This document shows positions 32,558 through 61,491 of a DNA stretch of 64,000 nt, one piece after another. Within the stretch, counting starts at the first letter, position 1, and each line of letters opens with the position of its first letter. The notes below the pieces were generated by a model. It was not told where the DNA came from. It was given only the letters and a program-made list of their open reading frames with translations, and searched no databases. The translations under genes and the position numbers were made by a program. The stretch is taken from positions 66,948 to 130,947 of the IMG/VR virus record IMGVR_UViG_3300021979_000001; one strand, written 5' to 3'. The stretch is from a virus. Lineage: Duplodnaviria; Heunggongvirae; Uroviricota; Caudoviricetes.

Positions 32558-33103
32558 ATGTCTGAAATGATTGCAACTCACTATCAAATGGTAAAACATT
32601 TCTACGCGGATCAGACCGCCAAACGGTCTAAAATCCCATTGATTAACCACATCGATGAAGGGATGAAACTCTTAGAATATTTCAATGCTGATGATTACAC
32701 GATTGCGGCATACGCAGTGCATCCGTTGGTCCAGGATAATGAAATCCGGCAGAAGCAAATTGACAACGGCATCGTTGCCACAATTGATCCAACTGTTTTA
32801 AAATTGGCATACGACTATTCTACAATTGCGAATGACTATTTATGCCGAAATAATACCGACAATTATGACTACCGAACGATTATGAATATCATTGCAGGTC
32901 ACATCAATCATGGCTGTGACAGTCGGGCATTGATTATGCTCAAAGCAGATAAAGCACAAAATCGAAAAGATTTTGAAATTGCTCATTTAGGGACGCATCC
33001 CCGGTCTGATCAGCTACATGAATATTTTAAGAAATGGCTCAATGTTCTCGGCATTTCCGAATATGAATACACAAATATTTTAATCCCGATCATGACAAAA
33101 TAA
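32558..33103 (+). CDS. HD-fold (SpoT/Mesh1-like) protein with HD changed to HP
   Basis: KRSKIPLINH...IAAYAVHPLVQD...LKADKAQN parallels RxSGxPYIxH...AALLHDxVED...KLADRLHN. Confidence 0.55.
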   Translation: MSEMIATHYQMVKHFYADQTAKRSKIPLINHIDEGMKLLEYFNADDYTIAAYAVHPLVQDNEIRQKQIDNGIVATIDPTVLKLAYDYSTIANDYLCRNNTDNYDYRTIMNIIAGHINHGCDSRALIMLKADKAQNRKDFEIAHLGTHPRSDQLHEYFKKWLNVLGISEYEYTNILIPIMTK

Positions 33104-33248
33104 AAGAAAACCCCCGTATCAATAAATGTGGTGGTTTTGACGTTGGGTTATTGATTAACTCATATTAACGGGGGACCACTGCTTTATATTTGATCATGTG
33201 TCATTAATCATACTATTATAAAAATAACAGTTAAAATGAGAAATTAAT

Positions 33249-33878
33249 ATGGGAAACATAATTTTTATCAGACATGGCGAAAGTATGGGGAATATAGATT
33301 CACAAAACTATTCCTTACCAGATAGTGCCGTATGTTTAACAACCACCGGGGTTTATCAAGCGGTGGCCTGTGGCAAATATATCAAAACATGGGGTAAAAC
33401 CCATGGGTTATCTCGTGTCCATGCGTTTTGTTCAGAATTCACTCGCGCACAACAAACGGCAAAAATCGTGTGTGACCTTTTGGGCCATACCGGTAATATT
33501 ACCATTACCCCATACCTTAACGAACGACATTACGGAACTGGCAAGCCCGAAGGCAATCATACACGGGATGATTTGCATTCGGATTGGTATGCCCGGCCTG
33601 TGAATGGTGAATCTCTTGAAATGGCGGGGAAACGGCTTGAAACTTGGTTTGATCGCGAAGCTACACCTCTTTCGGAATCTGGTGTCGTTATTGTCTTCAC
33701 TCACGGCCAAGTGATGAAATATATAATGACCCGGTTCATGGGAATACATCATGATGCTATCAAACCACCAAAAGTCCCTTCCAAAAATGCATGCCCTTAC
33801 ATAATGGGTGATTATACCGAAGGACATACCATTCTTACTTTACCCAAATATCAAGAAGCATTAGACCGGATCATTTAA
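33249..33878 (+). CDS. Histidine phosphatase (phosphoglycerate mutase-like family)
   Basis: FIRHGES, SEFTRAQQTA, LNERHYG, GES, VFTHG. Confidence 0.9.
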   Translation: MGNIIFIRHGESMGNIDSQNYSLPDSAVCLTTTGVYQAVACGKYIKTWGKTHGLSRVHAFCSEFTRAQQTAKIVCDLLGHTGNITITPYLNERHYGTGKPEGNHTRDDLHSDWYARPVNGESLEMAGKRLETWFDREATPLSESGVVIVFTHGQVMKYIMTRFMGIHHDAIKPPKVPSKNACPYIMGDYTEGHTILTLPKYQEALDRII

Positions 33879-33955: not shown

Positions 33956-36832
33956 TTAGAATGATAAATCATCACCACTATTACGAAGACGAACTGGGAT
34001 GTATACAAATTCAACTGCTTTGAGCGGAATGTATGCAATATCAATCCAAAGTTCGTTTCTGTTGCGACGTTCTGGTGTATTATTTGATTCATCACAAACA
34101 ATAACGAAGTCTTCTATAGCACGAAGACCAATTAGTCCCGTAAAGAACCGTTCGACTGTTAATCTAGCACTATCGCGAGTTTGCTGATCATTCTGTTCAA
34201 AGATGAACGGTTTAACCATAATATCAAGACGATACCGCAAGTAGTTGTCCAGTCGGGCCACATTGATACGATCTTCTGCACTATCAACTGCTGAAAGTGT
34301 TTTTTGACCATAGATCACCAAGCCACGATTTGGAATGAATGCTATCGGGTTGATCTTGTTTGAATATAGAACATTTCGTTGTCCTTCATTCAACAAGGTC
34401 GCCTGGAATTCACCTTCGCTCGTCAAATAACCAACAGATGTTGCATTATCTACTAACCCACGAGTGAAACCAGCCGGAGCAAACCATGGATATGCAACCT
34501 GATCATTATAAGCAAATGTTCGCAGCGCAATAGTCGATGGTGGGACCATAATTTCCATGCCATCAATATTCGTAGATAGGCCCCATGGATAATAGATACC
34601 ACAATATTCATCGGCAGTCGTTAATCCGTCTTCGCCGTTTGATGCAGCCCCATTTGCATTTTGTGCCCATGCCTGTATATCAGTTGCATTCGGGCGAAGG
34701 CGGGCTGGGGTGTCACCAATGATGAATGATACTAACTTTTGATCAGTATTCAGCATATTCATTTCGTCGATTAGTTCCGGGTAACCCGGTGCGGCCATGA
34801 TGTTGTAGTAAACCAAATCCGAACGAAGGTCTTGATTTGCCGCAACGGCAGCACTCATTGCTCGAACAACCATCGTGCGCTGGGCTTTACGACCCGCATG
34901 CATTGCACCATCTTGGCGATTACCAGATACCGTAACCCAACGACCGGCTGAATCAAGAGCCGGAAACTCATACAACGATGAACCAACCGTATAGCCATCA
35001 TAAGTATAATCTGTATTTGGATCAAAACCGCCATCCAGGAAGTAATTAGGCTTCCATTCTTTCACATTATTTGTGCTGTAGCGAGTGTTGAACATCAGCA
35101 TACCGGCTGGATATTCGCGAGGGTCTGGCGCATCGGGATCAAGATAATCCGAAATCAACATATCTTCAATTTCTTCGGAGTTATATGAATACGCACCGTT
35201 ATTTGCCATTCCAGCAAATTGAACGCCACTATCGGCACGAGCATCCCCAAATATAATACCAAACGGTGTTGTCTGATCGGTAACATCAATGCTTGACCAT
35301 TTACGTGTTTCTGCATTATAACGATATAATGCAGGATAATTTTCGGTATCTGACGAATTTAACCAAATGTCGTTACTTACCAGCGCACCACCACCTTGTT
35401 GTGTGAGCGGTGTTGATCCTGCAATAATAACACCCATCGGATCAGTATTAGGATATTGGCGTTTGTAACCAATCCACTGATCCCCGTCGCAATACATAAT
35501 ATCAACACGATAGTCTTCGGAAAACCATAATGTTCCTTCCTCTGGGGCAGTGGTTGGTGCCGAAGTGTCTGCTTCGTAAACCAGTCCTTCCCAGATCGAC
35601 CCATTCCAACGGCGCAACATTTGTGCGCCAGTCACCGAATCGTATCCAACATAAACTGCACCAGATGATGGTATTCCGATTGCATTGAGTGCGGCGGCAT
35701 CTTTAATCGGATCGCCGTCGTTCATTGTGCTGTTGAATGGATAAAATGGCGCGGAAACAGTGATCCACTGACCTTGATCAGCATTATAATAACGGACTTT
35801 CCACGCAGCCCCATTATTTGGGCTGGTGCCTTTAACCCACACATCACCGGACACTGACCCAGATGGATATTGTGCGTTATTTGTCCAGTATACCTGAACA
35901 CCCTTTTTGGTGCCACTTGTGATACCCAGGACATCTAGCGGAGTTCCCGTTGCATTTGTAACGGTCAGATCACCACCAATTGTATTTTTGATTACCAACG
36001 CACCATTGCCGCTTTCGGCACTAACATCATCGATACCGGCACTGTTAATGTCAGAAATAACTTCGGCCAGGGTTCCGCCAGTAAATGTAACCGTAATTCC
36101 ATTGATCTGTATTGCATTACCAACGGTTACGTTTGCGGGGCTGGTTTTCCCGATCAAAGTTGTGGGGCGTGCTGCTTTCCAGTCATCTGACCCGATTTGA
36201 TACCAGGTTCCATTAATTTTTTCATAACTGTAGTTTGCCGCTGTTAACGGGACTATCGCAAAATCACCGTTGTTACCATATGACGCAGCAGGGTAAATTC
36301 CGCTTTCATCTTCGGTAACATTCGATCCCATAGCCACTTTGACTGGTTGTGTTTCCCATGCGGCACCGGCAACCGAATTACCATTTGATTGAAAAATACC
36401 CCAAACCGTATCAGATAAATCAAGCCAGTAAGTTCCAGAAAACGGCTCGCCACGTGGGGCACTATCGCTCGTTTCAAGCTGATCAAGATCAATATCTGCA
36501 CGAATTACGTATGCCTGATTGCTGATACCAAGATATTGATATGCAGCATGTAACCCATACTCATTCAATTCGCTACCATGAATGGCAGTTCCCTGAACCG
36601 ATTTAAATGATGGATTACCGAAATTTTGAATAAGTTCGCGTTGACTTGTCGCGATAAATAATTTTCCTGCCTGTGCTGGTTGCGTATATGGTGCAATTCC
36701 ATCACCAGACGGTGATACTTTATTAGATGCAGTCGCAATTACGATAAGCGGAACTGTTCCTTCGCCTGCTGATGCGTAGAAACTTTCGTTAATGAATTGC
36801 ACGTCAACACCTGGGCTGACCAATGTAGCCAT
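33956..36832 (-). CDS. gp18: Tail sheath protein (gp18-like), 958 aa
   Basis: LVSPGVDVQFINES start; YPWFAPAGFTRG, LYSNKINPI, YGQKTL, DRINVARL, FEQND..TR, NELWIDI. Confidence 0.95.
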   Translation of the reverse strand: MATLVSPGVDVQFINESFYASAGEGTVPLIVIATASNKVSPSGDGIAPYTQPAQAGKLFIATSQRELIQNFGNPSFKSVQGTAIHGSELNEYGLHAAYQYLGISNQAYVIRADIDLDQLETSDSAPRGEPFSGTYWLDLSDTVWGIFQSNGNSVAGAAWETQPVKVAMGSNVTEDESGIYPAASYGNNGDFAIVPLTAANYSYEKINGTWYQIGSDDWKAARPTTLIGKTSPANVTVGNAIQINGITVTFTGGTLAEVISDINSAGIDDVSAESGNGALVIKNTIGGDLTVTNATGTPLDVLGITSGTKKGVQVYWTNNAQYPSGSVSGDVWVKGTSPNNGAAWKVRYYNADQGQWITVSAPFYPFNSTMNDGDPIKDAAALNAIGIPSSGAVYVGYDSVTGAQMLRRWNGSIWEGLVYEADTSAPTTAPEEGTLWFSEDYRVDIMYCDGDQWIGYKRQYPNTDPMGVIIAGSTPLTQQGGGALVSNDIWLNSSDTENYPALYRYNAETRKWSSIDVTDQTTPFGIIFGDARADSGVQFAGMANNGAYSYNSEEIEDMLISDYLDPDAPDPREYPAGMLMFNTRYSTNNVKEWKPNYFLDGGFDPNTDYTYDGYTVGSSLYEFPALDSAGRWVTVSGNRQDGAMHAGRKAQRTMVVRAMSAAVAANQDLRSDLVYYNIMAAPGYPELIDEMNMLNTDQKLVSFIIGDTPARLRPNATDIQAWAQNANGAASNGEDGLTTADEYCGIYYPWGLSTNIDGMEIMVPPSTIALRTFAYNDQVAYPWFAPAGFTRGLVDNATSVGYLTSEGEFQATLLNEGQRNVLYSNKINPIAFIPNRGLVIYGQKTLSAVDSAEDRINVARLDNYLRYRLDIMVKPFIFEQNDQQTRDSARLTVERFFTGLIGLRAIEDFVIVCDESNNTPERRNRNELWIDIAYIPLKAVEFVYIPVRLRNSGDDLSF

Positions 36833-37110
36833 ATTTAGACCTCCGGGATAAACACTGTGTGTCTTTTATTTATGTCAATATACTTTTAGAAACGTCGGAT
36901 AAGACCAAACTTATCACTATTATTTCTGATATTTTTAGTTCTCATTGGTTTTATTTATTTGAATTGCATAAAAATCGTGTTTTAATATTATTTTTTCGCA
37001 GTTTTCTGCCATTTCATCCATTACATATTAATATTTCATAATATGATAATATATTAATATAATGGATGCCCAGCATGTAAATTATTGAAAAATAACGATA
37101 ATTTTATCTG

Positions 37111-37138
37111 TTGCAAAAAATCAAAAACATTATATTAT
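37111..37138 (+). promoter_or_regulatory. Sigma70-like promoter candidate heading the paralog array
   Basis: TTGCAA-N16-TATTAT. Confidence 0.4.
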
Positions 37139-37160
37139 GGTATGAAATTTTTTATAGCAG

Positions 37161-38246
37161 GTGGATATGTATCTCATTCTCAATGAAAATAACAAACCCG
37201 TTATCGATATTAACCAGATGAACGCCAAACTCTCCATATTCCACGATGGGGAGTTGGTTGGTCATATTATTTGCAGTGGGTTAAACCTAATCACAATACA
37301 ATGTTATGACTTTGAAACCATGCTGTCATTAGACGACACCAAATCTAAAACTTATTTGGATTTTATGTATAAGGATACTACTAATGCTACGTTTAACGAT
37401 TATATCTATAACAAGATATTAACAATTATTATTTCTATTCGTGAATTGAAAAAATATGAAAAAGATTTAAGTCCTATACATTGGACAATCAAAAATAACG
37501 CAAACATCATGTTTTATTGTTATAGTGTTGCTGTTAATGGTTGGTCTCTTGAACAGAACCATTCTATATTTGATCATTCTAATAATAAAGATTTTTTATT
37601 ATTGTCGAAGGACGATTTAGAATTACATATTGTAGAATATATTCGTTGCCTTGTGAAAACTGTATTGGATGATAAATCACAACAATACATTGTGCGCGAT
37701 TATGATAGCAATACAAATCTATATTACCAAAAATATTATTCGTTGACCAGTTTTTGTCAAGATATTGGTTTGCACCATACAAACCCTATTTCAAAAAACA
37801 CGACGTTATCGTTTTTTAATAAGCATAATGATGCATTTGTAAAAAGGATTTCGTCTGATGAAATTATTGAGATTATTAAAGATTACAAAATCAATGACCG
37901 TATAGAACTGAATTTTGATATAACAACGTATACATTAATTAAACATAATGTATATGATCCATCATATTTGTTGATTTATTATTTTATCGATAATGTCAAT
38001 CCTGACAACGATGTGATGACTAATTTTCTTAAAGAAAATGCATGTCCTATTATACCACTGAAAAACTCACCGGAACTTTTCGATACCATTGGGGTGTATT
38101 CTGGGGAAATGAATAATCTTTCCACCATGCTGCAACTGATTGGTGCAAAATATGCTAGCATCGTTCCGGTTAAGATTATCATGGACTTATATGAAACCAT
38201 GAAACATAGTCCATATATATCCAGCATTAAGGTAAATTCACGATGA
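37161..38246 (+). CDS. Array protein, divergent family A-like
   Basis: 361 aa; C-terminal MLQLIG..IVPVKIIMD resembles family A ends. Confidence 0.65.
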   Translation: MDMYLILNENNKPVIDINQMNAKLSIFHDGELVGHIICSGLNLITIQCYDFETMLSLDDTKSKTYLDFMYKDTTNATFNDYIYNKILTIIISIRELKKYEKDLSPIHWTIKNNANIMFYCYSVAVNGWSLEQNHSIFDHSNNKDFLLLSKDDLELHIVEYIRCLVKTVLDDKSQQYIVRDYDSNTNLYYQKYYSLTSFCQDIGLHHTNPISKNTTLSFFNKHNDAFVKRISSDEIIEIIKDYKINDRIELNFDITTYTLIKHNVYDPSYLLIYYFIDNVNPDNDVMTNFLKENACPIIPLKNSPELFDTIGVYSGEMNNLSTMLQLIGAKYASIVPVKIIMDLYETMKHSPYISSIKVNSR

Positions 38247-39304
38247 AACTGGAATGCACCGCCGTTTATGATCACACTGTTGTTAGTGACACTAACTTTG
38301 TATACCGTGTCTTTGATCATGCCGGGAAACAAATTGGCGAATGTGTGGATAAGACCAACCGCGAACGAACCGTCACTCTTAATGGCACAAAGTTTGTTTT
38401 TGGCCTGGGTCATATGCTGACATTTTCGGCAGTTGAGACCGTCAATCTATTGATATTGACCGAAAAAATCTGTCTTGGTTATGACATAGCCATCTATACT
38501 CGGCTTGATCACTCGACATTGCAGGTGTATAATAGCCATAATCAAATTATTGCCACGATTTCATTAATAAAGGAAAATAATAAGACCTGTATTCAAATTG
38601 CCGGGGTATATGATTATGCCAAACTAACCTATTGTATAGATGATATTTTGGCTATCGATTTGGCATATCTTATCGAAATGTTGTATCGCGCACATATGTC
38701 AATAATTGTTAATGATCCGTCAAACTGTTTTATAAACATTGATTTTGGAGAATATACAAAGCGATTTAATTTAGATTCCATAATAACTGAACATACTTAT
38801 ATTATGAGTTTGACCACACATTCAAAATTAAATGGATTTATTCCAAAATATGTTGTGTATTACAAACACGATGATACCACATTCAATATTTTATTTGATG
38901 GGAAACACGCGTATAATTTCATCATTAATCATTTAACGATACATGCTAGACCGTTTACCGCAAAATATATAACAAACTTAGCTAAAGATTATTCTAATTA
39001 TAAAATTTATAGTATTTCATCAACACTGTATTATGAAATAAAAGATTCATTACCACCAGTTGAAATTATATATGATATAAAATATGTCATTGATTCATAT
39101 AATGATCGTAATAATTTCAATCATTATATTGCCACGTATCAAACTTTAAAATCGTTTATTGGTATTTTTTTTGATACTGCTGGTAATATCGCGTTTCGAG
39201 ATACAATATTTATTAGTGATAATATGTTGATATATACATTTTTCAAAGTATCAAATTTTAAGGATACCCAGTTCAAAATGTATGATTTATTAATCAGCAT
39301 TTGA
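38243..39304 (+). CDS. Array protein, divergent
   Basis: 353 aa; VYRVFDHAGKQIGEC motif; ATGA overlap with the previous gene. Confidence 0.65.
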   Translation: MKLECTAVYDHTVVSDTNFVYRVFDHAGKQIGECVDKTNRERTVTLNGTKFVFGLGHMLTFSAVETVNLLILTEKICLGYDIAIYTRLDHSTLQVYNSHNQIIATISLIKENNKTCIQIAGVYDYAKLTYCIDDILAIDLAYLIEMLYRAHMSIIVNDPSNCFINIDFGEYTKRFNLDSIITEHTYIMSLTTHSKLNGFIPKYVVYYKHDDTTFNILFDGKHAYNFIINHLTIHARPFTAKYITNLAKDYSNYKIYSISSTLYYEIKDSLPPVEIIYDIKYVIDSYNDRNNFNHYIATYQTLKSFIGIFFDTAGNIAFRDTIFISDNMLIYTFFKVSNFKDTQFKMYDLLISI

Positions 39305-39338
39305 GTCGTTTGTATAAAACATCCAGGAAGAAATTATT

Positions 39339-40511
39339 ATGTCACTACCTAATGGTCGTAAAAATAAAATCTGGATTGGGGCTAATTCCTATTATCATAT
39401 TGTGTTGTGTGACAATTCTAAAAATTATTTTTACATATATAACAGCGATAAAACTGAAATTGGTTTTTGTCGTTATGATGAAAATACACATCATTTTGAA
39501 TTTAAAATAGATCATCCTGATTATTACAATATTAATATTTCAGTGATTGATGATTCTGCTGCGCCACAAAAAATAAACTCGACATTTACCATTTCTGGCG
39601 TTATATCTCAATTTCTTAATATTTTAGACGTTATTACTACAAACAATAACCAAGATGAAACTATGTATCTATCGGTTATTTCACCAAAATCAACATTGGC
39701 ACATATTATTATAAATCATAAAACATATAATCATAAGACGAAACATCTTAAAACATTTATGACAAGTCATGCGGAACTTGGGTATAATATTAGTAATATT
39801 GCCAAATATTGTTTTCACAATATATCGACTTTTGGTAAAAACCGGTCTTATAAAAAATCATTTACCGAATGCAATGAACACATAACAACATATTATAATA
39901 AAACCACATGTTTCATGTATACCTTAAACGGTAAAGAATTTATTCATTCCAGCCTACAAGAAAGCATGCATGCTATATCACAGGTAAGCGATTATTTACC
40001 GAATAATTTCGTCATAGAAAAACGTTTAGTCGTAAACAACAAACTGATTAAAGTATATACCTTACAAACGGTATTGTTATATATTTTTAAAATGTTACTT
40101 ACTAACATTATTTCGGATATTAGCATCAACATTAAACGAAGTAATAAAGATTTTAATTATAACATATGGGGTTCATATTTTGAAACCATATCAAAAGACA
40201 TTACAAATTTCATATATAATAATATAACTGAAATGTCCATTAATGGATGTATTTGTGTAATCTATAATAACACGGATGATATAAAAATGTGTCATGATAG
40301 TATAGCACAGACAATACCAAATCACATCGTATCACCGTATTCCGACGAACATTTGTATCTCGAATCATTGGATCATAGCATCATGCTAAAATTATTAAAT
40401 ATTGAAACCCCCATCGTTTATAAGATGCATACGATATATTCCAAGTTATCAGCACATGTGTTAATGAGGCAATTATTTTCAACCATGGATATTCGTCATA
40501 ATCCGTTATAA
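39339..40511 (+). CDS. Array family A paralog 1
   Basis: IGFCRYDENTHHFEFKIDH..NISVID; VISPKSTLAHIII. Confidence 0.75.
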   Translation: MSLPNGRKNKIWIGANSYYHIVLCDNSKNYFYIYNSDKTEIGFCRYDENTHHFEFKIDHPDYYNINISVIDDSAAPQKINSTFTISGVISQFLNILDVITTNNNQDETMYLSVISPKSTLAHIIINHKTYNHKTKHLKTFMTSHAELGYNISNIAKYCFHNISTFGKNRSYKKSFTECNEHITTYYNKTTCFMYTLNGKEFIHSSLQESMHAISQVSDYLPNNFVIEKRLVVNNKLIKVYTLQTVLLYIFKMLLTNIISDISINIKRSNKDFNYNIWGSYFETISKDITNFIYNNITEMSINGCICVIYNNTDDIKMCHDSIAQTIPNHIVSPYSDEHLYLESLDHSIMLKLLNIETPIVYKMHTIYSKLSAHVLMRQLFSTMDIRHNPL

Positions 40512-40533
40512 TAATTAACCAGGAATAACAGAC

Positions 40534-41715
40534 ATGTATACCTTTTCCGAACTGACAACCATGATTGATGCGATTTTACATTATGGCGTTATTGTCAACA
40601 AAACCATATATAAATCAGAAACCCATGAAATTGCCATAACCACTAATGATGCCAGAACCGAGTTTACTTTTAATAAATACGATATTAAAACCAAAACCAC
40701 AAAACCCCTGCTTTTTCTATCGTATATAAAATACCCAAATGATAAAGTATATTATACGATTATATATCAAAATATTCATTATAATCTCACATTCATTTCT
40801 AAAGAACATAATTATCGTAGTGATCTATACTACATACTTAGCAACAGTATGCTGTTTTTTGTTATTGATGAATGTTGGGAAGAATTACAAAATCATAAAA
40901 TCAAACTTTATTTTGATAATAATGGTAGCGTATTATATTTCTATAGACAGGAAAATGGCACAAAAGATAAAACATATATTATGAAATTACAAATAATAAA
41001 TGATGTTTTATATTCATTACCAGTATTAAATGCAATGGGCACAAAGACTATACCAGAAAAAAGTTTTAATAATCCCGTGAGATTGATTAGTAATCTGTTA
41101 TCACGAATTAAAACATATACTCGTTACATGATGTGTGATGCCTATGGCAACACCATGAAAAGACACGAATCCGCTAGCTTGATTACCCTTATGCGGAAAT
41201 TTAAGAAACATAATTCTGTATATCGTATAATAAATGAGAACTTATCGGTTTCAAAAGTGGAAATTGGATTAGGCGTTAATAAACCATTTCTTTCAAATAA
41301 CCAATTAGTTGATAAATTCAGAAAAACAATTATTTCTGATAATTTAACCAAACTAATTGCACCATATCGACCTAGAATCGGAAAATACATAGTTGACAAT
41401 ATTTCGTCCATTGGTTTATCTGATTCGATATGTGTAGCACGAAACCAAACGAGATTTTCATTTTCCAACCAAGAATATAATAACTTTGTCCAACAACTTG
41501 ATAATGAAAATATAAAAGTGATCGATAGTTATAACGGTGTCATATTTACCCATATTTCATCATATGAACATGAAATATTTCTACAACTAATATCCGATGT
41601 CTCACTTAAAAAAAACAACATTGCTGACATAATGTCTACTAATGATATAAAACCTCTATTATGTAAGGATATGTTATCAGAAGAAATCAACAATTATTTG
41701 AAACTCGAAGTGTGA
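40534..41715 (+). CDS. Array family B paralog 1
   Basis: LLSRIKTYTRY; LSVSKVEIGL; IGKY; DMLSEEINNYL. Confidence 0.75.
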   Translation: MYTFSELTTMIDAILHYGVIVNKTIYKSETHEIAITTNDARTEFTFNKYDIKTKTTKPLLFLSYIKYPNDKVYYTIIYQNIHYNLTFISKEHNYRSDLYYILSNSMLFFVIDECWEELQNHKIKLYFDNNGSVLYFYRQENGTKDKTYIMKLQIINDVLYSLPVLNAMGTKTIPEKSFNNPVRLISNLLSRIKTYTRYMMCDAYGNTMKRHESASLITLMRKFKKHNSVYRIINENLSVSKVEIGLGVNKPFLSNNQLVDKFRKTIISDNLTKLIAPYRPRIGKYIVDNISSIGLSDSICVARNQTRFSFSNQEYNNFVQQLDNENIKVIDSYNGVIFTHISSYEHEIFLQLISDVSLKKNNIADIMSTNDIKPLLCKDMLSEEINNYLKLEV

Positions 41716-41742
41716 TTATAAAACTGTCAGTGGTATGATGTT

Positions 41743-42900
41743 ATGAGCAAGAACATGTTATTATTTTACCCGGTTCAAGTGACCCCAAATTCATACGACA
41801 TTTACGCACATCCCGCAATAAAGATCGGGATATGTCGTTTTGATCCGAACACAAAACATTTTGAATTTAAGACAGATCATCCATTCTTTCTTAATCTTGA
41901 TATTTCTATAATCGATAATAAAGTTGATCTTGAATTATATTCTCTACAAGATTCAATATATGATTATATTGCCATATATAGTGCGTTAGAACTTCATCGT
42001 CATCCACAAGGAAAAAATAAGTATATCTATGTTCTATCTCCTAAATCCACATTACTGAATATAATAATCAATGTTAAAACATACAATTATAATACAAAAC
42101 GTTTTAATACATTTATGAAAATATACACCGAGTTCGAACTTGTATCTATACATCCTATTAAACGAAAATATAAGTATTACACTAGTGGGATATATATCAG
42201 TGGGTTATTAGACTATGTATGCCACGATACATTTTATGAATGTAACACTTATGTTTCCAATTATTTTAATGATAGCACGTATTTTTCATATACAAATAAC
42301 CATCAGGACTATGAAACGCAGCATAAATCCTTGTATGGTGCGATTCAACATATTGGGATTGATAACCCTGACAATATAGTAAATGTAACCATTGTTAAAA
42401 AAAGAACATCTAATAATAAACCGGTTAAAACAGTTTCACCGAACGTGTGTTTAAAAGAATATGTTCACATGCAAATCGCAAACGTGATTTCAATGGTGAT
42501 TGAAGACGAAAATAATACAACAAATATTAAAATCATAGGTGACAATTATAATAAGTATAATCATTACACCTTAATATATAATAAGTATGGTATGTCTAAT
42601 TTTAAGGCAGGAATGGCAGATTTAGTATATGATAATATTAATAATATATCACCCAATGGATTTGTATGTCATCTCAATTTTAACGACGCTGATATAACCG
42701 CATCTGAAATCGTTGAAAATATAATAATTTTACCGCATTTAAATATCGTGATCACAGAATCATATGAAGAAATAATTTTACTGAAACTATGTGGTGTGAC
42801 TGTTGTATGGGCATGTCCTGTATCTACTATTTTTGAACATGTAAAAACCACTTCCGTAATGCATGATTACCTGATAAACTACACAAAATTCGCGAATTAG
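41743..42900 (+). CDS. Array family A paralog 2
   Basis: IGICRFDPNTKHFEFKTDH..DISIID; VLSPKSTLLNIII. Confidence 0.75.
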   Translation: MSKNMLLFYPVQVTPNSYDIYAHPAIKIGICRFDPNTKHFEFKTDHPFFLNLDISIIDNKVDLELYSLQDSIYDYIAIYSALELHRHPQGKNKYIYVLSPKSTLLNIIINVKTYNYNTKRFNTFMKIYTEFELVSIHPIKRKYKYYTSGIYISGLLDYVCHDTFYECNTYVSNYFNDSTYFSYTNNHQDYETQHKSLYGAIQHIGIDNPDNIVNVTIVKKRTSNNKPVKTVSPNVCLKEYVHMQIANVISMVIEDENNTTNIKIIGDNYNKYNHYTLIYNKYGMSNFKAGMADLVYDNINNISPNGFVCHLNFNDADITASEIVENIIILPHLNIVITESYEEIILLKLCGVTVVWACPVSTIFEHVKTTSVMHDYLINYTKFAN

Positions 42901-42924
42901 ATTAACATATACCGAGAACCACCA

Positions 42925-44139
42925 ATGATCACTCAATATGAGTCTATCAAACTAAGTGATCGTCTCATTGCGGCATGCGGCGACACATCTATCAGTCCCG
43001 CACGTGATTCGGTAAACATCGTCTTGCATGATGGTAACAAAAATTCTTTGTATTTTGTTACCACTGAAAATAACAAACAATACTCCATCATTAATGTTAA
43101 TAAAAAAACAAATATAGAAACCGTCATTATACATGGACGAGATTATTCTGATTGTTACCTGGGTAAAGAAATAACCATTACCTGTGATTATGCCCAATCA
43201 ACGAATTATACATCAACCTGGTGTAACCATAACTTTATCGTTCTTTTGGTTAATGTGTATTTCATATGGGATAAATTGGTTAAACATAATGTTCATATGA
43301 AACTTATTGCCAGTAATACCATTAGTTTTTATCAGATCGATCAACATACCAACAAGGAAATGATCATATTAACGGTTCAATCGGGAAATTATGGTCATAA
43401 AATAAAAGAAACGGTATCACCAATATCACTCCGCACATTACTGGATAATCAGAAATCACTTGCACATGAAGTGCTGTTAATTCTTCTATCGCGGATTAAA
43501 ACGTATACCCAGTTCTACATCTGTGATGCCAGTAAGGATTGTGACAATATCTATACTAAACAACACATCAACATATCAGGTATGATTAGGGATATACATA
43601 AACAATATCCAACAAATACCTTGAATATTATCAAAAATAAAAACCTAGTCGTTAAAAAGAACGAAGTCGGTTTGAATGTTACAACTGATTATATGACAAC
43701 AAATAAATTGATCAATCTATACCGTTCAATAATTATACCCGATTTAATAAATAAACATCTTCAATATTCATCGACTATAAACAATTCGATTTTCATAGGT
43801 AAATATGTGTATCGGAATTTATCCAATTTTCATATTGATGATTTGATTTGTAAGATCGAGGATCATGATCTGCTAAATTATGATAATCCTCAATATACCG
43901 ATTCAATTAATATGATTCGTTCCGAAGGTATTACTATAATAACAATATGCAATAATGTTATTTGTGTTCGGGTTCCGTCACAAAAACTTTGGATGTGGTT
44001 ACAACTGTTAACCAGTAATAATATTATTAAAACTAATATTACCACATTGCTATCTACTCCCCCGATAAAATATTTGTTGAACAAAAATATGGTATCACCA
44101 GAAATCAATGAATATTTGCAATTGGATCAGGAACCTTGA
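42925..44139 (+). CDS. Array family B paralog 2
   Basis: LLSRIKTYTQF; LVVKKNEVGL; IGKY; NMVSPEINEYL. Confidence 0.75.
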   Translation: MITQYESIKLSDRLIAACGDTSISPARDSVNIVLHDGNKNSLYFVTTENNKQYSIINVNKKTNIETVIIHGRDYSDCYLGKEITITCDYAQSTNYTSTWCNHNFIVLLVNVYFIWDKLVKHNVHMKLIASNTISFYQIDQHTNKEMIILTVQSGNYGHKIKETVSPISLRTLLDNQKSLAHEVLLILLSRIKTYTQFYICDASKDCDNIYTKQHINISGMIRDIHKQYPTNTLNIIKNKNLVVKKNEVGLNVTTDYMTTNKLINLYRSIIIPDLINKHLQYSSTINNSIFIGKYVYRNLSNFHIDDLICKIEDHDLLNYDNPQYTDSINMIRSEGITIITICNNVICVRVPSQKLWMWLQLLTSNNIIKTNITTLLSTPPIKYLLNKNMVSPEINEYLQLDQEP

Positions 44140-44360
44140 ACATCGACGCCACTGCCCATAATTTGGTGCTGTGGGCGCGTGTCCGAAGTGCAACGCCATG
44201 GTGATAGCCATAACCAGGAACGAGTGGTCTATGGCCGTTAAATGCAATATATCTAACCACAACGATCCCATCTGAAAACACAGAAACAGTTGACAATGGA
44301 TTAAAAATAATCAAACCTATGTTGCCCCTGCAATCGAAAATTTGTAATTAGGTCCACCCC

Positions 44361-45575
44361 ATGCCCAATGATCTTTTAGAATATACACACGGTCTTCCAA
44401 TTTCAGTTAATGATTTGGTATGGGAGACACATAATAATAATAATTATTATTATTTAGAACTTGCACGCAACACGTATGTTATTTATGGCGATAACAAACA
44501 ACCAATCGGGGTATGTAATTTTGATATTAACACCGGTAAATTCAATTTTAAAATTGATCACAGTGATTATTTGAATATTGATATTTCTATTGTTGATACC
44601 GAAATTGCAAAAACCCCGGATTTTTCAATGGCACACATCATTGGATCATTTATAAGCATCTATCGGGAAATAAACAACAACGAGTCACCAAGATCGTATA
44701 ATACGTTTTTTTATATAATTTCAAAAGAATCGTCGTTGTCTCATATTATTGTTGAGGCAAAAACTTTTAACTTTGACACAAAACGTTTAACAACGTTTAT
44801 GAAAACGCATGCGGTCATTGATTATTTTAATGAATCCACACCACACTATGTATTTTATAATACCGCAACGCACGGCAAAAACAAATCTAATCACAAATCA
44901 TTTTCTAAGTGTGATAGTCATACCACTACCTATTTTTGGCGAAACTATTATTATGTTTATTCATTAGATGAACATAATAATCGTTATTTTAAAACATTAA
45001 AAGATGCGATTGATAGTATTGCAACGACGTGTTTAAAAGCGGATGACAGTTTGAAAATCAAACAAGTCACTGTAGCAAATAACTTTGTTACTAAAGTCTA
45101 TCACAACAAAAACATTATTCACAAGTTGATTCGATCATATATACGAAATGATATGCCTAATATTACAAACTGCATAGTTTATTTCAATAAATGTGATCAA
45201 TACAAAACACATTATGGGCAAAGTTCGGGCCAATACACCCGTGATGGACATGTTAATGACTATGATGAACATTTGAATGACTATGCTCATTTTGTAGCAA
45301 AATATATTAATGTTTTTACCCCTGGTGGTTTTGTTTGTTATATTGATTATGATTTACAAACCTTGGATATAACGAAACTCGTAAATGGAACCATTATCAA
45401 TCCAGAACAGAAATCGTTTGCTTTTGTTCCTTCTTACGAAGATATTGTTCTGCTTCAATTAACCGATGTTAAAATCATGAACCAGTGTCCAGTATCGGTC
45501 TTTTTCGACAAATTAACGGATAATCCGATGATCAATGATTATCTATCTAATAATTCACGTTATTTCAAACCGTAA
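44361..45575 (+). CDS. Array family A paralog 3
   Basis: IGVCNFDINTGKFNFKIDH..DISIVD; IISKESSLSHIIV. Confidence 0.75.
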   Translation: MPNDLLEYTHGLPISVNDLVWETHNNNNYYYLELARNTYVIYGDNKQPIGVCNFDINTGKFNFKIDHSDYLNIDISIVDTEIAKTPDFSMAHIIGSFISIYREINNNESPRSYNTFFYIISKESSLSHIIVEAKTFNFDTKRLTTFMKTHAVIDYFNESTPHYVFYNTATHGKNKSNHKSFSKCDSHTTTYFWRNYYYVYSLDEHNNRYFKTLKDAIDSIATTCLKADDSLKIKQVTVANNFVTKVYHNKNIIHKLIRSYIRNDMPNITNCIVYFNKCDQYKTHYGQSSGQYTRDGHVNDYDEHLNDYAHFVAKYINVFTPGGFVCYIDYDLQTLDITKLVNGTIINPEQKSFAFVPSYEDIVLLQLTDVKIMNQCPVSVFFDKLTDNPMINDYLSNNSRYFKP

Positions 45576-45578
45576 AGA

Positions 45579-46793
45579 TTGCTAGGTTCACCAATGTTAT
45601 CCAAAGACGATATTGTTAAAATTAATAATTTTTATTATATTCACTGCGATTTTCTATACGCAGATGATAAAAATCATATGGTGCGTGATCGGGCATTGTT
45701 TGAAACCAAGGCATACTGCATTCGGGCAAAATCATCATCCGAAACCAAACAAATGACGGTTTATCGCGTTGACAAAAAAACAAATGAAGTAACTGTTATC
45801 TTAACTGTGCTTGGTAAAGCAACCAATAATGGCAAACCAATAATCACCCTTTATTGTGACTTTAATAATTCCGAGAAAATTACAATTCCGTTTTTTAATA
45901 CCACCTTATTTACGTTAATGATTGGTGTTTACGTTATTTGGCCTAAACTCCAACGCGCTCGCGTCAATATGCGATTTTCAAAAAATGTTATTATTTTTTA
46001 TCGTTTGAATAAAAAAAATAACACAGAACATCATATCAAGAAAATAGTAGTTGAAAACTGTGATGCGTATACCTCTCTTTCGTGTGTATCCGCACTAGGT
46101 CATGTCCGCAACGATGACGATTTTAGTGGTAATATTACCCATATTCTAACCAATTTACTTACACGCATTAAATCATTCACCAAATATTATATTGCTGACC
46201 CGTATTCAAACGATATTCCTAAAAAACATAAAAATACATTAAACATTATTCGGTTGCTACACAATAATCATCACAATCACGCGCTGTCATTTATTGAGAA
46301 CAGGCAGTTGACGGTAAAAAAGGTTGAGATTGGGTTAGATGAAACGACAGATCATTTATCGACCGATGAATTAATTGCAGCATATCGGTCACAAATTTTA
46401 GCAGACAGTATCACACAGTTGATTGCACCACACTATCATGCAATCGGAAAATATGTGCTAAAAAATTTGAAATCGTTGGGTGCCCATGATTTGATATGTT
46501 GTTCTGTTGACCATATATTGCTTGATTATAACAATCCCGATTATGACGATATAATTAATCGCCTGGACGACCAAGGGATTACCGTCATTACAGACTATTC
46601 CGGTGCAATTTACACACATGTTCCAACTAACATGCAAAAAATATTTTTACAAATTCTAACCAACGCATTGCCGAATTGCACAAATATTGCCGAAATATTA
46701 TCCAATAACCAATGCATATCATGTCTTTTGACGGATGATATGTTGTCAGATGAAATGAAGCAATATATCGATACCAACATTCACCATAAATAA
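45579..46793 (+). CDS. Array family B paralog 3
   Basis: LLTRIKSFTKY; LTVKKVEIGL; IGKY; DMLSDEMKQYI. Confidence 0.75.
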   Translation: MLGSPMLSKDDIVKINNFYYIHCDFLYADDKNHMVRDRALFETKAYCIRAKSSSETKQMTVYRVDKKTNEVTVILTVLGKATNNGKPIITLYCDFNNSEKITIPFFNTTLFTLMIGVYVIWPKLQRARVNMRFSKNVIIFYRLNKKNNTEHHIKKIVVENCDAYTSLSCVSALGHVRNDDDFSGNITHILTNLLTRIKSFTKYYIADPYSNDIPKKHKNTLNIIRLLHNNHHNHALSFIENRQLTVKKVEIGLDETTDHLSTDELIAAYRSQILADSITQLIAPHYHAIGKYVLKNLKSLGAHDLICCSVDHILLDYNNPDYDDIINRLDDQGITVITDYSGAIYTHVPTNMQKIFLQILTNALPNCTNIAEILSNNQCISCLLTDDMLSDEMKQYIDTNIHHK

Positions 46794-46969
46794 TCGTCGC
46801 TAGGGCGGTTATTTTGCCCGTGTGATGCGTTCTAGCAAATTTAGGTAGGTTGGTGTGGGTCACATATTTACCGACGTGGTATGGCCCTAAAAATGGGCAA
46901 TAAAAATAAAACACTTGAATATAATTATTTCCATGTTATTAATTAATCAGCAGATTAGGGAATATTAAC

Positions 46970-47290
46970 ATGAAAACTTTACGCGACTGGATGATGGACG
47001 AATATTTTGATAGCCATCAGTTCGACAAAAAATATGTCCGGTTGAATAAGATGCTGGATATTCCAATTGTCAAAGACAGCGATGAATTGTCAGTTGGTGA
47101 TCATATGATCTGGCCGGAGTTCAAAGAAAAGAACATCCAGTCTTGGGTGGAACTTGAAAACGGGTGGTGTGTCGCATTCAACGAGAATGTCTCTCGGGGA
47201 TGGTCTTTTCCCTTTAAAAAACTTCCATTGTCGCCTCGGATCAAAAAAGTCCAGACAAACAAAACTGATTATGAATTTCAGTTAATTTGA
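46970..47290 (+). CDS. Hypothetical phage protein
   Basis: 106 aa, WVELENGWCVAFNENVSRGWSFP; SD AGGG. Confidence 0.7.
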   Translation: MKTLRDWMMDEYFDSHQFDKKYVRLNKMLDIPIVKDSDELSVGDHMIWPEFKEKNIQSWVELENGWCVAFNENVSRGWSFPFKKLPLSPRIKKVQTNKTDYEFQLI

Positions 47291-47306
47291 TTTTAAAAAC
47301 CGGAAT

Positions 47307-47894
47307 TTATTGTCGGTTTTTATCATATTCCATAAGTGTTTTGATTGCATCTTTCCCTTCTTTTGTCAATTTTCTCTTTCCGATTCCTGCCCAAATATCA
47401 GTGGGTTTCGGAACATCAATGACCCTGGTCCATCCACTCTGCCATTGATACCATTGGTTCGTTATCATATCAAATAGCCATAGCGGCAAATCATTATTGG
47501 CCCCATGAATGTCAATAAACATTTGGGTTGCCCATGCAGTTCCACCTTCAACGTTGCCATTTATAAGATTAGATACCGCATAAACCGCAGTTGAATCTTT
47601 AACCTGATACCAGTTTCTCTGTAAGAGTTGTTTGGTATATTTCGACATTGGTGGATAATTACGTTTTAGCGTGGCATTTGCTCGGATCAATGCGTTATCT
47701 GCCAAATCAAGTTGACTATCACTTAATACTACAATGTCATCGTCGGGAACGTTTGTTTTTTGACTTTGGAATACCCAATGAATGACTTTATGCCCTGCCA
47801 AACCCGCAGTCATTCCCCAAACTGAATCCGCCCCATCAGCACCACCACTAAGACATATAGACACTGATAATTTATTATCATCGATTATTTTCAT
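47307..47894 (-). CDS. SLOG-superfamily (DprA/YspA-like) protein
   Basis: LSGGADGAD, RNWYQV..STAVYA, GGTAWA, WAGIGKR. Confidence 0.65.
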   Translation of the reverse strand: MKIIDDNKLSVSICLSGGADGADSVWGMTAGLAGHKVIHWVFQSQKTNVPDDDIVVLSDSQLDLADNALIRANATLKRNYPPMSKYTKQLLQRNWYQVKDSTAVYAVSNLINGNVEGGTAWATQMFIDIHGANNDLPLWLFDMITNQWYQWQSGWTRVIDVPKPTDIWAGIGKRKLTKEGKDAIKTLMEYDKNRQ

Positions 47895-53978: not shown

Positions 53979-54443
53979 ATGGCAACATACCAGTTTGAAT
54001 CTTTTCTAAAATGTCCGATATATCATGGTTTTGGAAAATCGACTAGCAAACGAAAAATTTTCAATAATTTTACGGTGGACACGTTTGAAACTGCATACAA
54101 ACGGTATCTGCGTTGTCGGGATGCTGCGAAATGGGAAGCTAATCTGATTTCAATTTCGAATGAAAACAAATTATTATATTCGACCGTATCTGGTATTAAT
54201 AATAAAGAAATCGACATTAAACCATTCATCAATAAACATTATATTACCGATGAAATTGCATTTTCTATGCTTAAAATGGAAATGGCGTATGCAGTCAAAT
54301 GTATAAAAGGATATAATATTAAAATGTTTAAATTATATGATTTAAATGATAATTTAATCGGATATTGTAATAATGTTTCCCCATTAAAACCCGAAGTTAT
54401 ATCGCCATACTTAATTGGCGTCAATTATCATATTACTAATTGA
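53979..54443 (+). CDS. Small-array paralog 1
   Basis: YQF..FETAY..AFSMLKMEMAYAVK..FKLYD..IGYC. Confidence 0.75.
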   Translation: MATYQFESFLKCPIYHGFGKSTSKRKIFNNFTVDTFETAYKRYLRCRDAAKWEANLISISNENKLLYSTVSGINNKEIDIKPFINKHYITDEIAFSMLKMEMAYAVKCIKGYNIKMFKLYDLNDNLIGYCNNVSPLKPEVISPYLIGVNYHITN

Positions 54444-54464
54444 CCCGAAATAAGGAGTTATAAT

Positions 54465-54962
54465 ATGGCAAACGAAACGATCAAACAATATCAGTTTGAA
54501 TATAAACCATGTCCCAATAGATTTACTATTGGTGACATTATTAATAACATTCATAATACATCAGTTTTTGAGACAACCAATTTCAAAGATGCATATATGT
54601 ATTATATCAAAAAAACAATCCCATTAGTATCAGAATTAATTAACATATATATGATTGAAAATGATGAAAAAACATTACTATATAATTATTTAACCGGGAT
54701 TTTAGTGTCAGATGATAATGTTATTAAACATATAAATTATTCTAACAATTTAATATCATTTGATCAATCATTTTCTATACTTAAATTGGAAATGGGATAC
54801 GCGATTAAATCAATATGCAATGTCGCAACAGTATTTCATTTATATGATAATGAACATAATATAATTGGTGCATGTGCGAAAATTGATTCTGATAATTTAG
54901 ATATACGAATTGATAGAAATAAAAATTATATAATTATTAATGGGCATTTATACAGGGGTTAA
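54465..54962 (+). CDS. Small-array paralog 2
   Basis: YQF..FKDAY..SFSILKLEMGYAIK..FHLYD..IGAC. Confidence 0.75.
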   Translation: MANETIKQYQFEYKPCPNRFTIGDIINNIHNTSVFETTNFKDAYMYYIKKTIPLVSELINIYMIENDEKTLLYNYLTGILVSDDNVIKHINYSNNLISFDQSFSILKLEMGYAIKSICNVATVFHLYDNEHNIIGACAKIDSDNLDIRIDRNKNYIIINGHLYRG

Positions 54963-54970
54963 ACGTAGAA

Positions 54971-55480
54971 ATGGCAGAATATCAATTCTTATGGAAAACA
55001 ACCGGTTATGATGATGCTTCACGCAGAATTATTAGTAATTATATTTCGGTGTCAAAGGATTGTGACTTTATTACCGCATGTGAAAAATTTAACAATAAAT
55101 GCAAAAGACATAACCCTAATCCGTATGACGCTACTAAACAATTACAATTGATTTATAGTATCACCGATAATACGTCTACATGTGAAACAATTTATGATCA
55201 CAACCTTGGTTTTTATGACTGTGCGGAAAGTCGTGATTATACAAAAAACATTGTCCCGAATGACCGATATATCACACCATCCGTCGCATTCACTATGTTA
55301 AAATTAGGCGGATATTATGCAGTAAAAGATACGGCAATATGTCTGCCAACTTTTTTTGGTATTTTTGACCTGGATAATATTTATGTAGGTGCAACGGAAC
55401 GTATTGAATATAATAACACAATAAAATGGAAAGAGTATAATAGTATTATAATTAGTATCAATCATCTTACTGATAGCTAA
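54971..55480 (+). CDS. Small-array paralog 3
   Basis: YQF..FITAC..AFTMLKLGGYYAVK..FGIFD..VGAT. Confidence 0.75.
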   Translation: MAEYQFLWKTTGYDDASRRIISNYISVSKDCDFITACEKFNNKCKRHNPNPYDATKQLQLIYSITDNTSTCETIYDHNLGFYDCAESRDYTKNIVPNDRYITPSVAFTMLKLGGYYAVKDTAICLPTFFGIFDLDNIYVGATERIEYNNTIKWKEYNSIIISINHLTDS

Positions 55481-55481
55481 A

Positions 55482-55994
55482 GTGAGAATCGTTGAAATGA
55501 CAATTAACACTTATACATTTTGTTATGAAACCACCTTTTATAGAAAATCAAAAGGATGGATTGAAAGCAAGATTACTCGTGAATACAAAACGGTTATCGA
55601 ATCAGATAACTTCACGGATGCATATTATGGTTTTCTACATCGTCGAAAATATAAATCACCCGCAATATTAAAGCAGGTTATACTTAATACATCAGATAAC
55701 ATTCAAATACAATTATACCATAAATTTTCAGGATTTTCAAATTACGACAATTCTGTATTTGAATATATTGACGGATATAAACATTTATTACCGTTAGATA
55801 ATGTATTCGTTATGCTTAAGTTAAATATGGCATATGCGGTAAAACATATAACCGAGATAATGACGTTTTTTGAAATATATGACCCACAAGGACATCTTAT
55901 CGGAACCTGTTACAATATTAATTTCAAAAAAAATATACAATATTGTTATTATCCAAATCGAAATCTACTAGTTCTTAATAGCGATTTACTCTAA
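55482..55994 (+). CDS. Small-array paralog 4
   Basis: YTF..FTDAY..VFVMLKLNMAYAVK..FEIYD..IGTC. Confidence 0.75.
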   Translation: MRIVEMTINTYTFCYETTFYRKSKGWIESKITREYKTVIESDNFTDAYYGFLHRRKYKSPAILKQVILNTSDNIQIQLYHKFSGFSNYDNSVFEYIDGYKHLLPLDNVFVMLKLNMAYAVKHITEIMTFFEIYDPQGHLIGTCYNINFKKNIQYCYYPNRNLLVLNSDLL

Positions 55995-56010
55995 TAATAG
56001 TGGTTAAACG

Positions 56011-56520
56011 ATGACAAGATATAAATTCGCATGGAAAACAATTTATATAAACGACAGTTACATTAATACAACATCACGTGTTTTCACAAGAATATACGAT
56101 GCTGATTATTTGGATGCGGCTTTTAGTAAATATGAAAATTCATGTTTAAAAAAAGAAAATAAAAGAACATTACTTTATATCTATATTATGTCTGATAATT
56201 ATGGTGGTCCAGGCAAAACAATATATGATTTAAATACTGGGTTTACCGATTGTATTGATTTCGTCATGAAATACTTTATTGATTCCAATAATTATATTTC
56301 ACCGTTACAAGCATTTACCATGCTAAAGATGGGTGCAACAATTGCACGTAAGAATACCGATTCATATAAGCCAACGGTATTTGATCTATTTGATACTAAA
56401 CATAATTATGTCGGGTCTACTGAACGTATTGAATATCAAAACTCGATAAAGTGGTATAGATCAATATCTCACATGGTAACAGACACATCTATTTTGTATA
56501 ATATAAAAGAACATGATTGA
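56011..56520 (+). CDS. Small-array paralog 5
   Basis: YKF..LDAAF..AFTMLKMGATIARK..FDLFD..VGST. Confidence 0.75.
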   Translation: MTRYKFAWKTIYINDSYINTTSRVFTRIYDADYLDAAFSKYENSCLKKENKRTLLYIYIMSDNYGGPGKTIYDLNTGFTDCIDFVMKYFIDSNNYISPLQAFTMLKMGATIARKNTDSYKPTVFDLFDTKHNYVGSTERIEYQNSIKWYRSISHMVTDTSILYNIKEHD

Positions 56521-60234: not shown

Positions 60235-61491
60235 ATGTCTGATCCATTGAAGAACAAAAAATTCTGTGTTCTCCCTTTTATTCATTTTTCTAATCGGCCC
60301 ACTGGAAATATTCGGTTGTGCTGTGAAGCAGAGAGTCCGCATGACTGGTTATTAAATGATGGCAACACCGCCGCCATTGGCCGGGACGATTTCATGGGGG
60401 ACGTTTGGAACTCGGATTATATTAAAGATGTTCGCAAAAAAATGTTTGCTGGTGAATATGTCAAAGAGTGTGAAACCAGATGTTATTTTAATGAATCCGT
60501 GGGCATTATGTCGAAACGGGAACGTGCAAACGAACGATGGTTAACCCCGGATGTCGTTGATAGAGTTGTCAAAGCAGCAAACAATGATATGCATGTTGCC
60601 GAACCGCCCAAATTTATTGATGTTAAACTCGGCAATCTATGTAATTTATCATGTCGTATGTGTTCAGCAGTCAGCAGCACCCGGTGGTTGAATGATGTTA
60701 AAATGATGTCAGATGATCTTCCACCAGAATATGACAAAAGTGTGAAACGTGGTCAGGCAATCACCCGGTGGTGGGATTCAGCAACATTTGAAAAAAACAT
60801 GATGGATATATTACCATATGTTGACGTTATTCAAGCAACGGGTGGCGAACCATTTTTAAATAAAAAACTTTTGGAAATTATAGAGAAAATACCGGATGAA
60901 CAATGCGCAAAAATGTCATTTTGGGTATCATCAAATGTCCAGCATATTGATGACCGGTGGTTCGTTGCCTTATCTCGATTTAAAGATGCCGGTGTAAACG
61001 CCAGTATTGATGCGACGGGCAAAGCATTGGAATATATTCGTCAACATGCCGAATGGGATACCATTGTCGAAAACATTTACCGCCTTGAAGAATGTGGGAC
61101 ATCATTAAAAATATCATATACCCATCAACTCTTTTCATTGGAATATTTGCCATCATTATATGACTTTGCCATATCGCGTCGTTCTGGTAAAAAAAAGATG
61201 ATGGTTCAACCGCATATTCTTCGGTATCCCATCACATATCGTCAATCGATTTTGTGTGATGACGGTCGTAATCATTTCGTTCAAAAATATCGAGATTATT
61301 TGGCATCGCAGAATTTGTTGTCCGATCATGATAGAGAATCGATTGAAGCAATTATCAATGATTTGAACAACGGTCAGCATGACCCAGATACTCTATCCAA
61401 ATCGCAGCACGTCACCCGAACAATGGATACTTATTATAACCGAAATTTTGCAGACGTATTCCCTGAACTTAATCAGTTTTTAAAATGGTGA
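60235..61491 (+). CDS. Radical SAM protein with N-terminal twitch/SPASM-like Cys domain
   Basis: FCVLPF..LCC..C..C, then CNLSCRMC, TGGEPF, ASIDA. Confidence 0.9.
   Translation: MSDPLKNKKFCVLPFIHFSNRPTGNIRLCCEAESPHDWLLNDGNTAAIGRDDFMGDVWNSDYIKDVRKKMFAGEYVKECETRCYFNESVGIMSKRERANERWLTPDVVDRVVKAANNDMHVAEPPKFIDVKLGNLCNLSCRMCSAVSSTRWLNDVKMMSDDLPPEYDKSVKRGQAITRWWDSATFEKNMMDILPYVDVIQATGGEPFLNKKLLEIIEKIPDEQCAKMSFWVSSNVQHIDDRWFVALSRFKDAGVNASIDATGKALEYIRQHAEWDTIVENIYRLEECGTSLKISYTHQLFSLEYLPSLYDFAISRRSGKKKMMVQPHILRYPITYRQSILCDDGRNHFVQKYRDYLASQNLLSDHDRESIEAIINDLNNGQHDPDTLSKSQHVTRTMDTYYNRNFADVFPELNQFLKW

Follow-up and report, generated by a model that had tools for sequence, protein, structure and literature searches.

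What leads a giant phage to carry, next to the gene for its tail sheath, a run of diverged genes in which two kinds alternate, and what might such genes do? The question is raised by a 9.6-kb array at positions 37161-46793 of a 64,000-nucleotide stretch of DNA (hereafter, the window), which corresponds to G000:C1:66948-130947 of a virus record that is 457,165 bp long and complete according to CheckV (IMG/VR record IMGVR_UViG_3300021979_000001, a tailed phage). The array consists of eight open reading frames (ORFs) of 353-404 codons, all on the + strand and thus in one direction, and six of these form three successive pairs of genes that we call A and B. The pairs are three copies of a two-gene unit, and they lie in an insert whose location and opposite-strand orientation are evident from comparison with related phages. 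This ~10.4-kb insert is a lineage-specific, operon-like block in a phage resembling Agrobacterium phage Atu_ph07, and the explanation that we prefer, tentatively and at a little under an even chance, is that it encodes a battery of soluble, non-late, host-directed accessory proteins.

A two-gene unit repeated three times beside the tail sheath gene

When the eight array proteins were compared all against all by BLASTP, six of them fell into two clean triplets whose members alternate along the DNA. The A proteins (A1, 39339-40511; A2, 41743-42900; A3, 44361-45575; 390, 385 and 404 amino acids, respectively) share 28% identity with one another along almost all of their length, with E values of 7e-35 to 1e-40, and the B proteins (B1, 40534-41715, 393 aa; B2, 42925-44139, 404 aa; B3, 45579-46793, 404 aa when read from a TTG codon but likelier to start at the ATG at 45594, giving 399 aa) are 31-35% identical, with E values of 3e-31 to 9e-51. 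DNA repeats within the array have periods of 2356-2365 and 2681-2684 nt, i.e., the length of one A-B unit, and the A motifs that are conserved best are the only ones still visible when the DNA itself is compared (61-72% identity). The alternation of three A with three B genes, the pair as the unit of duplication, and the deep divergence of the paralogs (~30% identity) had all been proposed from inspection of the letters alone (hereafter, the sequence-only reading), and all are borne out by these comparisons; the motifs that it quoted for A and B can also be found, except that SPKSTL reads SKESSL in A3. There are no further copies of A or B in the 457-kb genome.

The edges of the insertion are set by two genes on the - strand with clear counterparts in other phages. 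On the left is the tail sheath gene (33956-36832, 958 aa; Pfam Phage_sheath_1C and Phage_sheath_1), whose product is 52% identical to that of Atu_ph07 (490 kb) and 46% identical to that of Sinorhizobium phage Phosso (469 kb); IMG/VR contains no sheath closer than these two. On the right is a DprA-like gene (47307-47894, 195 aa), whose product is 44% identical to Atu_ph07 gp133 (E 2e-51) and 45% identical to Phosso gp392 (E 4e-54). In both Atu_ph07 and Phosso, the DprA-like gene precedes the sheath gene by ~100 nt and is codirectional with it, and the deoxynucleoside monophosphate kinase gene beyond the DprA-like gene is conserved as well, whereas here the DprA-like and sheath genes are separated by 10.4 kb of opposite-strand sequence made up of the eight-gene array and a 106-aa ORF. 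Because the flanking orthologs are adjacent in these relatives, the array represents a lineage-specific insertion at a conserved junction. Atu_ph07 and Phosso, the nearest two relatives, encode nothing resembling A or B, such that a refutation through unpaired A or B in relatives, as named in the sequence-only reading, does not apply. No repeats were found flanking the insertion.

A second opposite-strand insert, of two genes encoding an HD-domain protein and a histidine phosphatase (32558-33878), occurs on the side of the sheath gene away from the array, such that opposite-strand accessory inserts recur in the structural module of this phage. The phage was also assembled a second time, on Joint Genome Institute (JGI) contig Ga0232639_1000204 of dataset 3300021977, which is identical to window positions 34361-45314. 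This 16-kb contig runs on into unrelated DNA, with A3 fused to a tail that includes a stretch reading LAGDFNA (L004:10955-11624); it looks like an assembly chimera, which accounts for an apparent 443-aa ‘homolog’ (P0009).

Frames of ~390 codons would not stay open by chance at a guanine-plus-cytosine (GC) content of 31%, at which a stop is expected about once in 12 codons, and we therefore consider these to be maintained genes. Moreover, that six reading frames are intact at ~30% identity implies that each copy is still under selection. Spacing within the array is tight (-4 to +34 nt between ORFs, save for one spacer of 221 nt), and Shine-Dalgarno-like purine runs precede most of the gene starts. 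The exceptional spacer, between the second and third units (44140-44360), has a GC content of 0.45, much higher than that of the array (0.31), and may contain an internal promoter or be an insertion scar. It has no Rfam match, a folding z-score of -0.34, and nothing similar to it in its own genome or in Atu_ph07; these searches rule out a known or structured RNA and a gene remnant. Within A3, a 21-nt internal tandem duplication (45242-45283, encoding DGHVNDY and DEHLNDY) indicates that small-scale slippage is still active in the array.

Downstream, a weak terminator-like hairpin with a T-rich tail (46796-46809, + strand) begins 3 nt past the B3 stop codon, in a region where two such sites were found against 4.4 expected. 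The final + strand gene of the inserted block is the 106-aa ORF (46970-47290), whose only match, to the slr1957 family, was sub-threshold (E 0.005). At about 47294-47320 there is also a bidirectional terminator-like hairpin.

Origin of the alternation

How three A genes came to alternate with three B genes depends in part on whether A and B are themselves related. Alignment of the two family profiles by hhalign matched A 287-355 to B 281-355 with a score of 27.9, a value attained by none of 80 column-shuffled B profiles (mean 15.3, standard deviation 2.3, maximum 23.4), and the matched stretch occupies the same position in two families of equal protein length. With greedy alignment, colinearity extends over residues 15-383 of A and 11-392 of B. 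In addition, a 31-nt DNA match of 74% identity joins the C-termini of B1 and A2 over an SYE..I.L.L motif, and the predicted order of secondary-structure elements is similar in both families (a beta-meander, a helix, a beta-sheet, long helices and a small alpha/beta C-terminal domain). This evidence is weak but consistent, and it suggests that the two families are probably not independent but go back to old sister genes.

If A and B are sisters, the alternation has a simpler, mechanical cause, namely the duplication of a two-gene segment: Once two diverged sisters are adjacent, segment duplication or unequal exchange between like copies produces the order A-B-A-B-A-B without any complex between the products. 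Pairing thus loses force as proof of a complex, and it becomes possible that A and B constitute one family of six members without obligate pairing, in which the alternation is a footprint of the duplicated segment and each protein acts alone. Such an account draws on the probable homology of A and B and their equality in length and layout, on the many ordinary single-family tandem arrays elsewhere in this genome, and on the expectation that, given A-B-A, recombination between like copies would duplicate the unit automatically. It is harder to reconcile with the retention of both members, intact, in all three units despite ~70% divergence, with the possession by A and by B of their own invariant motifs, which suggests two distinct and non-redundant roles, and with the consistently more basic character of B than of the neighboring A in every unit (isoelectric points of 7.6-8.9 vs. 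6.3-7.7). We regard a set of proteins acting singly as possible, if on balance unlikely.

The retention of both members in every unit and the invariant motifs of each subfamily are also the arguments for pairing in the stricter sense. In the most far-reaching version of pairing, A and B would be a new pair of folds that assemble into three cognate heterodimers, an early battery in which each unit would bind or neutralize its own variant of a host defense or target, and thus a pairwise genomic accordion of a kind new to phages; we think it quite improbable that all of this holds.

The two genes ahead of the pairs show no sign of belonging to the duplicated set. U1 (37161-38246, 361 aa, with a likelier start at the ATG at 37167 that yields 359 aa and agrees with the JGI gene call) and U2 (38243-39304, 353 aa, overlapping the end of U1, stop codon included, by 4 nt) are both on the + strand and both orphans. 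The sequence-only reading had them as diverged members of the array, a status that does not survive comparison: They show no detectable relation to A, to B or to one another by BLASTP (E > 0.4), their hhalign scores of 14-20 lie within those of shuffled controls (15 +/- 2.3, maximum 21), and a hidden Markov model (HMM) built from the C-terminal region of the six A and B sequences misses both. Their identity as diverged A or B copies is thus rejected at the level of sequence.

Under the explanation that we prefer, an ancestral gene of ~390 codons would have given rise to A and B by duplication and divergence, with the C-terminal likeness as the trace of that event; the A-B segment would then have been duplicated twice by unequal recombination, after which all six copies drifted to ~30% identity with their reading frames intact. 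The orphans U1 and U2 would head the same transcription unit as the A-B copies.

Expression and possible roles of A and B

Upstream of the array is the divergent intergenic region between the sheath gene and U1 (36833-37160). A sigma70-like promoter had been assigned to this position by the sequence-only reading, and matches do exist, at 37035-37063 (10 of 12 positions) and at 37111-37138 (9 of 12), but they are no better than chance in DNA this rich in adenine and thymine (AT): Across the region, 94 such matches were found against 79.8 +/- 8.5 in shuffled sequence, which does not amount to enrichment. Within the same interval, the palindromic 10-mer ATATTAATAT is present twice, at 37025 and 37051, i.e., 26 nt apart, and the two copies together make an 18-nt inverted repeat. 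There are seven copies of this 10-mer in the 457-kb genome, and the repeat upstream of the array could be an operator.

More can be said of the signal that the array does not have. ATAAATA forms the core of the late promoter of T4, TATAAATA, and across the whole genome the octamers with the strongest enrichment ahead of genes are variants of this motif (~8-14 fold). The motif is located 8-80 nt upstream of 80 of the 542 called genes, including those for the sheath, the tube and the terminase; occurrences in the window include those at 36873 (- strand, before the sheath gene), 32436 and 22586. On the + strand of the 327 nt that precede the array there is none, and by exclusion it is a reasonable inference that expression is non-late, i.e., that the array is transcribed before, or apart from, genes of the T4 late type.

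The sequence-only reading recognized no domain in A or B, and the family libraries agree. Searches of Pfam, PHROGs, NCBIfam and PDB sequences with all eight array proteins returned nothing significant, with only sub-threshold noise in Pfam and NCBIfam; PADLOC yielded nothing at E <= 0.1, and the array proteins fit none of the models of known anti-phage defense or toxin-antitoxin systems in PADLOC, Pfam and NCBIfam. Searches for homologs of any kind gave the same outcome. A tblastn search of 50,697 phage records with U1, U2, A3 and B3 detected no homolog, and when 5.8 billion proteins were searched through a word index, using U2 and the profiles of A and B as queries, only the same phage was recovered, on the chimeric JGI contig. 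An exhaustive HMM search of 1.84 billion representative proteins with the B profile produced nothing credible; its lone match at E 1e-5, to a 570-aa protein over six short stretches, looks compositional and was set aside. Pattern scans of IMG/VR (for A and B), of metagenome contigs (for A) and of genome contigs (for A) had no match, and in a feature search of the ESM Atlas the best score for B3 was 0.87, which is of lead level only, with none for A3. Across Atu_ph07, Phosso, GenBank phages, IMG/VR and the sets of 5.8 and 1.84 billion proteins, A and B were therefore found in no other phage.

Structure prediction was constrained by the same isolation, in that only three sequences were available per alignment, and the AlphaFold2 models are poor as a result: The mean predicted local distance difference test (pLDDT) is 59 for A, reaching ~80 for residues 190-385 only, and 49 for B, at ~65-80 for residues 1-160 only. 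Fold searches with these models against PDB, BFVD, AFDB clusters, the Atlas and VIA gave no match above the noise that the tools themselves state. Resemblances dismissed as being at noise level include those of B 104-200 to generic alpha+beta sandwiches (Mediator Med17, YjbR, TriTu immunity, frataxin and PsiB; Z 5-8) and of A 300-375 to ferredoxin-like domains (Z 3.5-4.6). A weak match of the A model to a 335-aa protein of Atu_ph07 (BFVD, E 8e-3, TM 0.21-0.23) was rejected since it has no sequence support across the Atu_ph07 genome. Because no transmembrane-like segment is conserved among the paralogs, we take the proteins to be soluble. Their richness in N, I, K and Y is the expected result of base composition. 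By inspection, there is no N-terminal capsid-targeting leader common to the array proteins or their neighbors.

The position of the array directly beside the tail sheath gene brings up a role in the virion, in which the three A-B units would specify three heterodimers of a tail or particle appendage. Precedents of both kinds are available. In Pseudomonas phage JBD30, gp47 and gp48 (PDB 8rk3) form a tail-fiber-forming heterodimer that is used three times, such that the side arms are three heterodimers of two similarly folded proteins (Valentova et al. 2024, PMC11445458), and hair-like fibers are known for Atu_ph07 (PMC7824862). The array resembles the JBD30 genes in being composed of adjacent gene pairs, in its case three pairs of probable sisters beside a tail gene. 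However, JBD30 uses one gene pair three times whereas the array has three pairs; the array is opposite in strand to all of the neighboring structural genes and has no late-gene signal (ATAAATA) upstream; and A and B are missing from Atu_ph07 and Phosso even though the virion module is common to all three phages. Up to E 10, there was no match to phrog_687 in the PHROGs scan, nor to any PDB chain, those of 8rk3 included, in the PDB sequence search. 8rk3, whose fold is a nitrilase-superfamily-like sandwich, is absent from both the Foldseek and the VIA lists, but a shared fold could go unseen with models as poor as these (pLDDT 59 and 49, as above). Finally, predicted secondary structure contains no fiber-like repeats, beta-helix or coiled coil. 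Weighed against the proximity to the sheath gene, these observations make an appendage improbable.

We return, then, to a soluble accessory battery as the favored interpretation. The A and B proteins would be cytoplasmic and would act on the host, whether in takeover or in counter-defense, with each unit tuned to a different variant of its target. We only infer this host-interaction role, which would be in keeping with what has been proposed for other lineage-specific families of jumbo phages and of large DNA viruses. Several points weigh against our interpretation. The searches brought up neither a domain nor a homolog nor an above-noise fold match that would speak directly to function; the homology of A and B is weak (hhalign probability of 5-7%) and rests on the shuffled controls and on colinearity; the expression timing depends on the absence of one motif; and the array adjoins structural genes, which would suit a virion role as well. 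Furthermore, a single genome without population data cannot show positive or diversifying selection. Since paralogs at ~30% identity are saturated and the family is confined to this phage, estimates of the ratio of nonsynonymous to synonymous substitutions (dN/dS) and comparisons of copy number with relatives are impossible.

Base composition and comparison with other gene expansions

The AT-richness that the sequence-only reading had judged by eye, relative to core genes, holds up: The GC content of the array is 0.310, as opposed to 0.383 genome-wide, and is the lowest among 896 overlapping 9.6-kb windows. Together with its opposite-strand insertion at a conserved junction, this could be read as the mark of foreign cargo, e.g., a mobile island or a cassette of the toxin-immunity or defense type acquired by recent horizontal transfer, the low GC reflecting an outside origin. 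But the genome contains many tandem paralog arrays, several of which are equally AT-rich (GC 0.275-0.327), and these home-grown arrays mean that the low GC of this one is not good evidence of foreign origin; the local paralog arrays of this phage seem to be low in GC generally. The block also has no integrase, transposase or homing-endonuclease domain, no flanking repeats and no PADLOC match, and no donor-like homolog emerged from the 5.8 or 1.84 billion proteins or from genome, metagenome and virus contigs. Recent import of this type appears very improbable.

Other paralogous families are scattered through the genome. The most AT-rich gene set of all, with a mean GC of 0.275, comprises five paralogs of 154-170 aa at 53979-56520 (G000 120926-123467). 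A family of 32-45 genes for proteins of 80-107 aa, all on the - strand, occupies both ends of the record (G000:C1:356-20136 and 452301-456993), and many of its genes have a conserved TTAACTTA-containing sequence upstream. There is also a dispersed family of ten members (388-485 aa), one at 60235-61491 of the window and the rest at nine other places in the record; the protein encoded at 60235-61491 has a cysteine-rich N-terminus that is suggestive, by sequence impression only, of radical-SAM proteins.

How does the array compare with systems that are already known? Like the ‘morons’ of phages, it is self-contained and opposite in strand, has an upstream region of its own, ends in a terminator-like structure and is situated between genes that are adjacent in relatives, but with nine genes and 10.4 kb it greatly exceeds a typical moron in size, and it is internally duplicated. 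Amplification of K3L in poxviruses and the MGF360 and MGF505 genes of African swine fever virus (ASFV) are cases of tandem amplification followed by divergence that are usually read as adaptation to host defenses. The array shares with these ‘genomic accordions’ the tandem amplification and subsequent divergence of accessory genes; the poxvirus and ASFV families, however, have known host targets and many sampled strains, whereas the array is represented by one genome and its divergence is too old for rates to be estimated.

The closest parallels are the tandem expansions of jumbo phages, such as the lineage-specific family of zinc-ribbon proteins, present in ~35 copies, of Bacillus phage G (Iyer et al. 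2021, PMC7824862). As in those expansions, the genes of the array are co-oriented paralogs, restricted to one lineage and deeply diverged, with a function that is unknown or presumed to be host-directed, and with three A and three B genes there are at least three adjacent paralogs of each kind. The array differs from the phage G family in that its unit is two genes of ~390-400 aa, repeated three times, with no recognizable domain. The best-supported conclusion is that the array is an internally duplicated accessory operon specific to its lineage, and one more member of this known class, the multigene expansions of jumbo phages (PMC7824862), the less usual feature being a two-gene repeat unit that probably descends from two ancient sister genes.

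Coming from a single uncultured phage and having no relatives, the array changes no general view on present evidence. Yet lineage-specific families, the functions of which are almost all unknown, supply much of the extra DNA of giant phages, and this array is a clean example of such a family: Its insertion site is datable, its repeat unit comprises two genes, and its six copies are all intact though deeply diverged. As such, it is a reasonable target for asking whether these expansions encode tools of counter-defense or host takeover.

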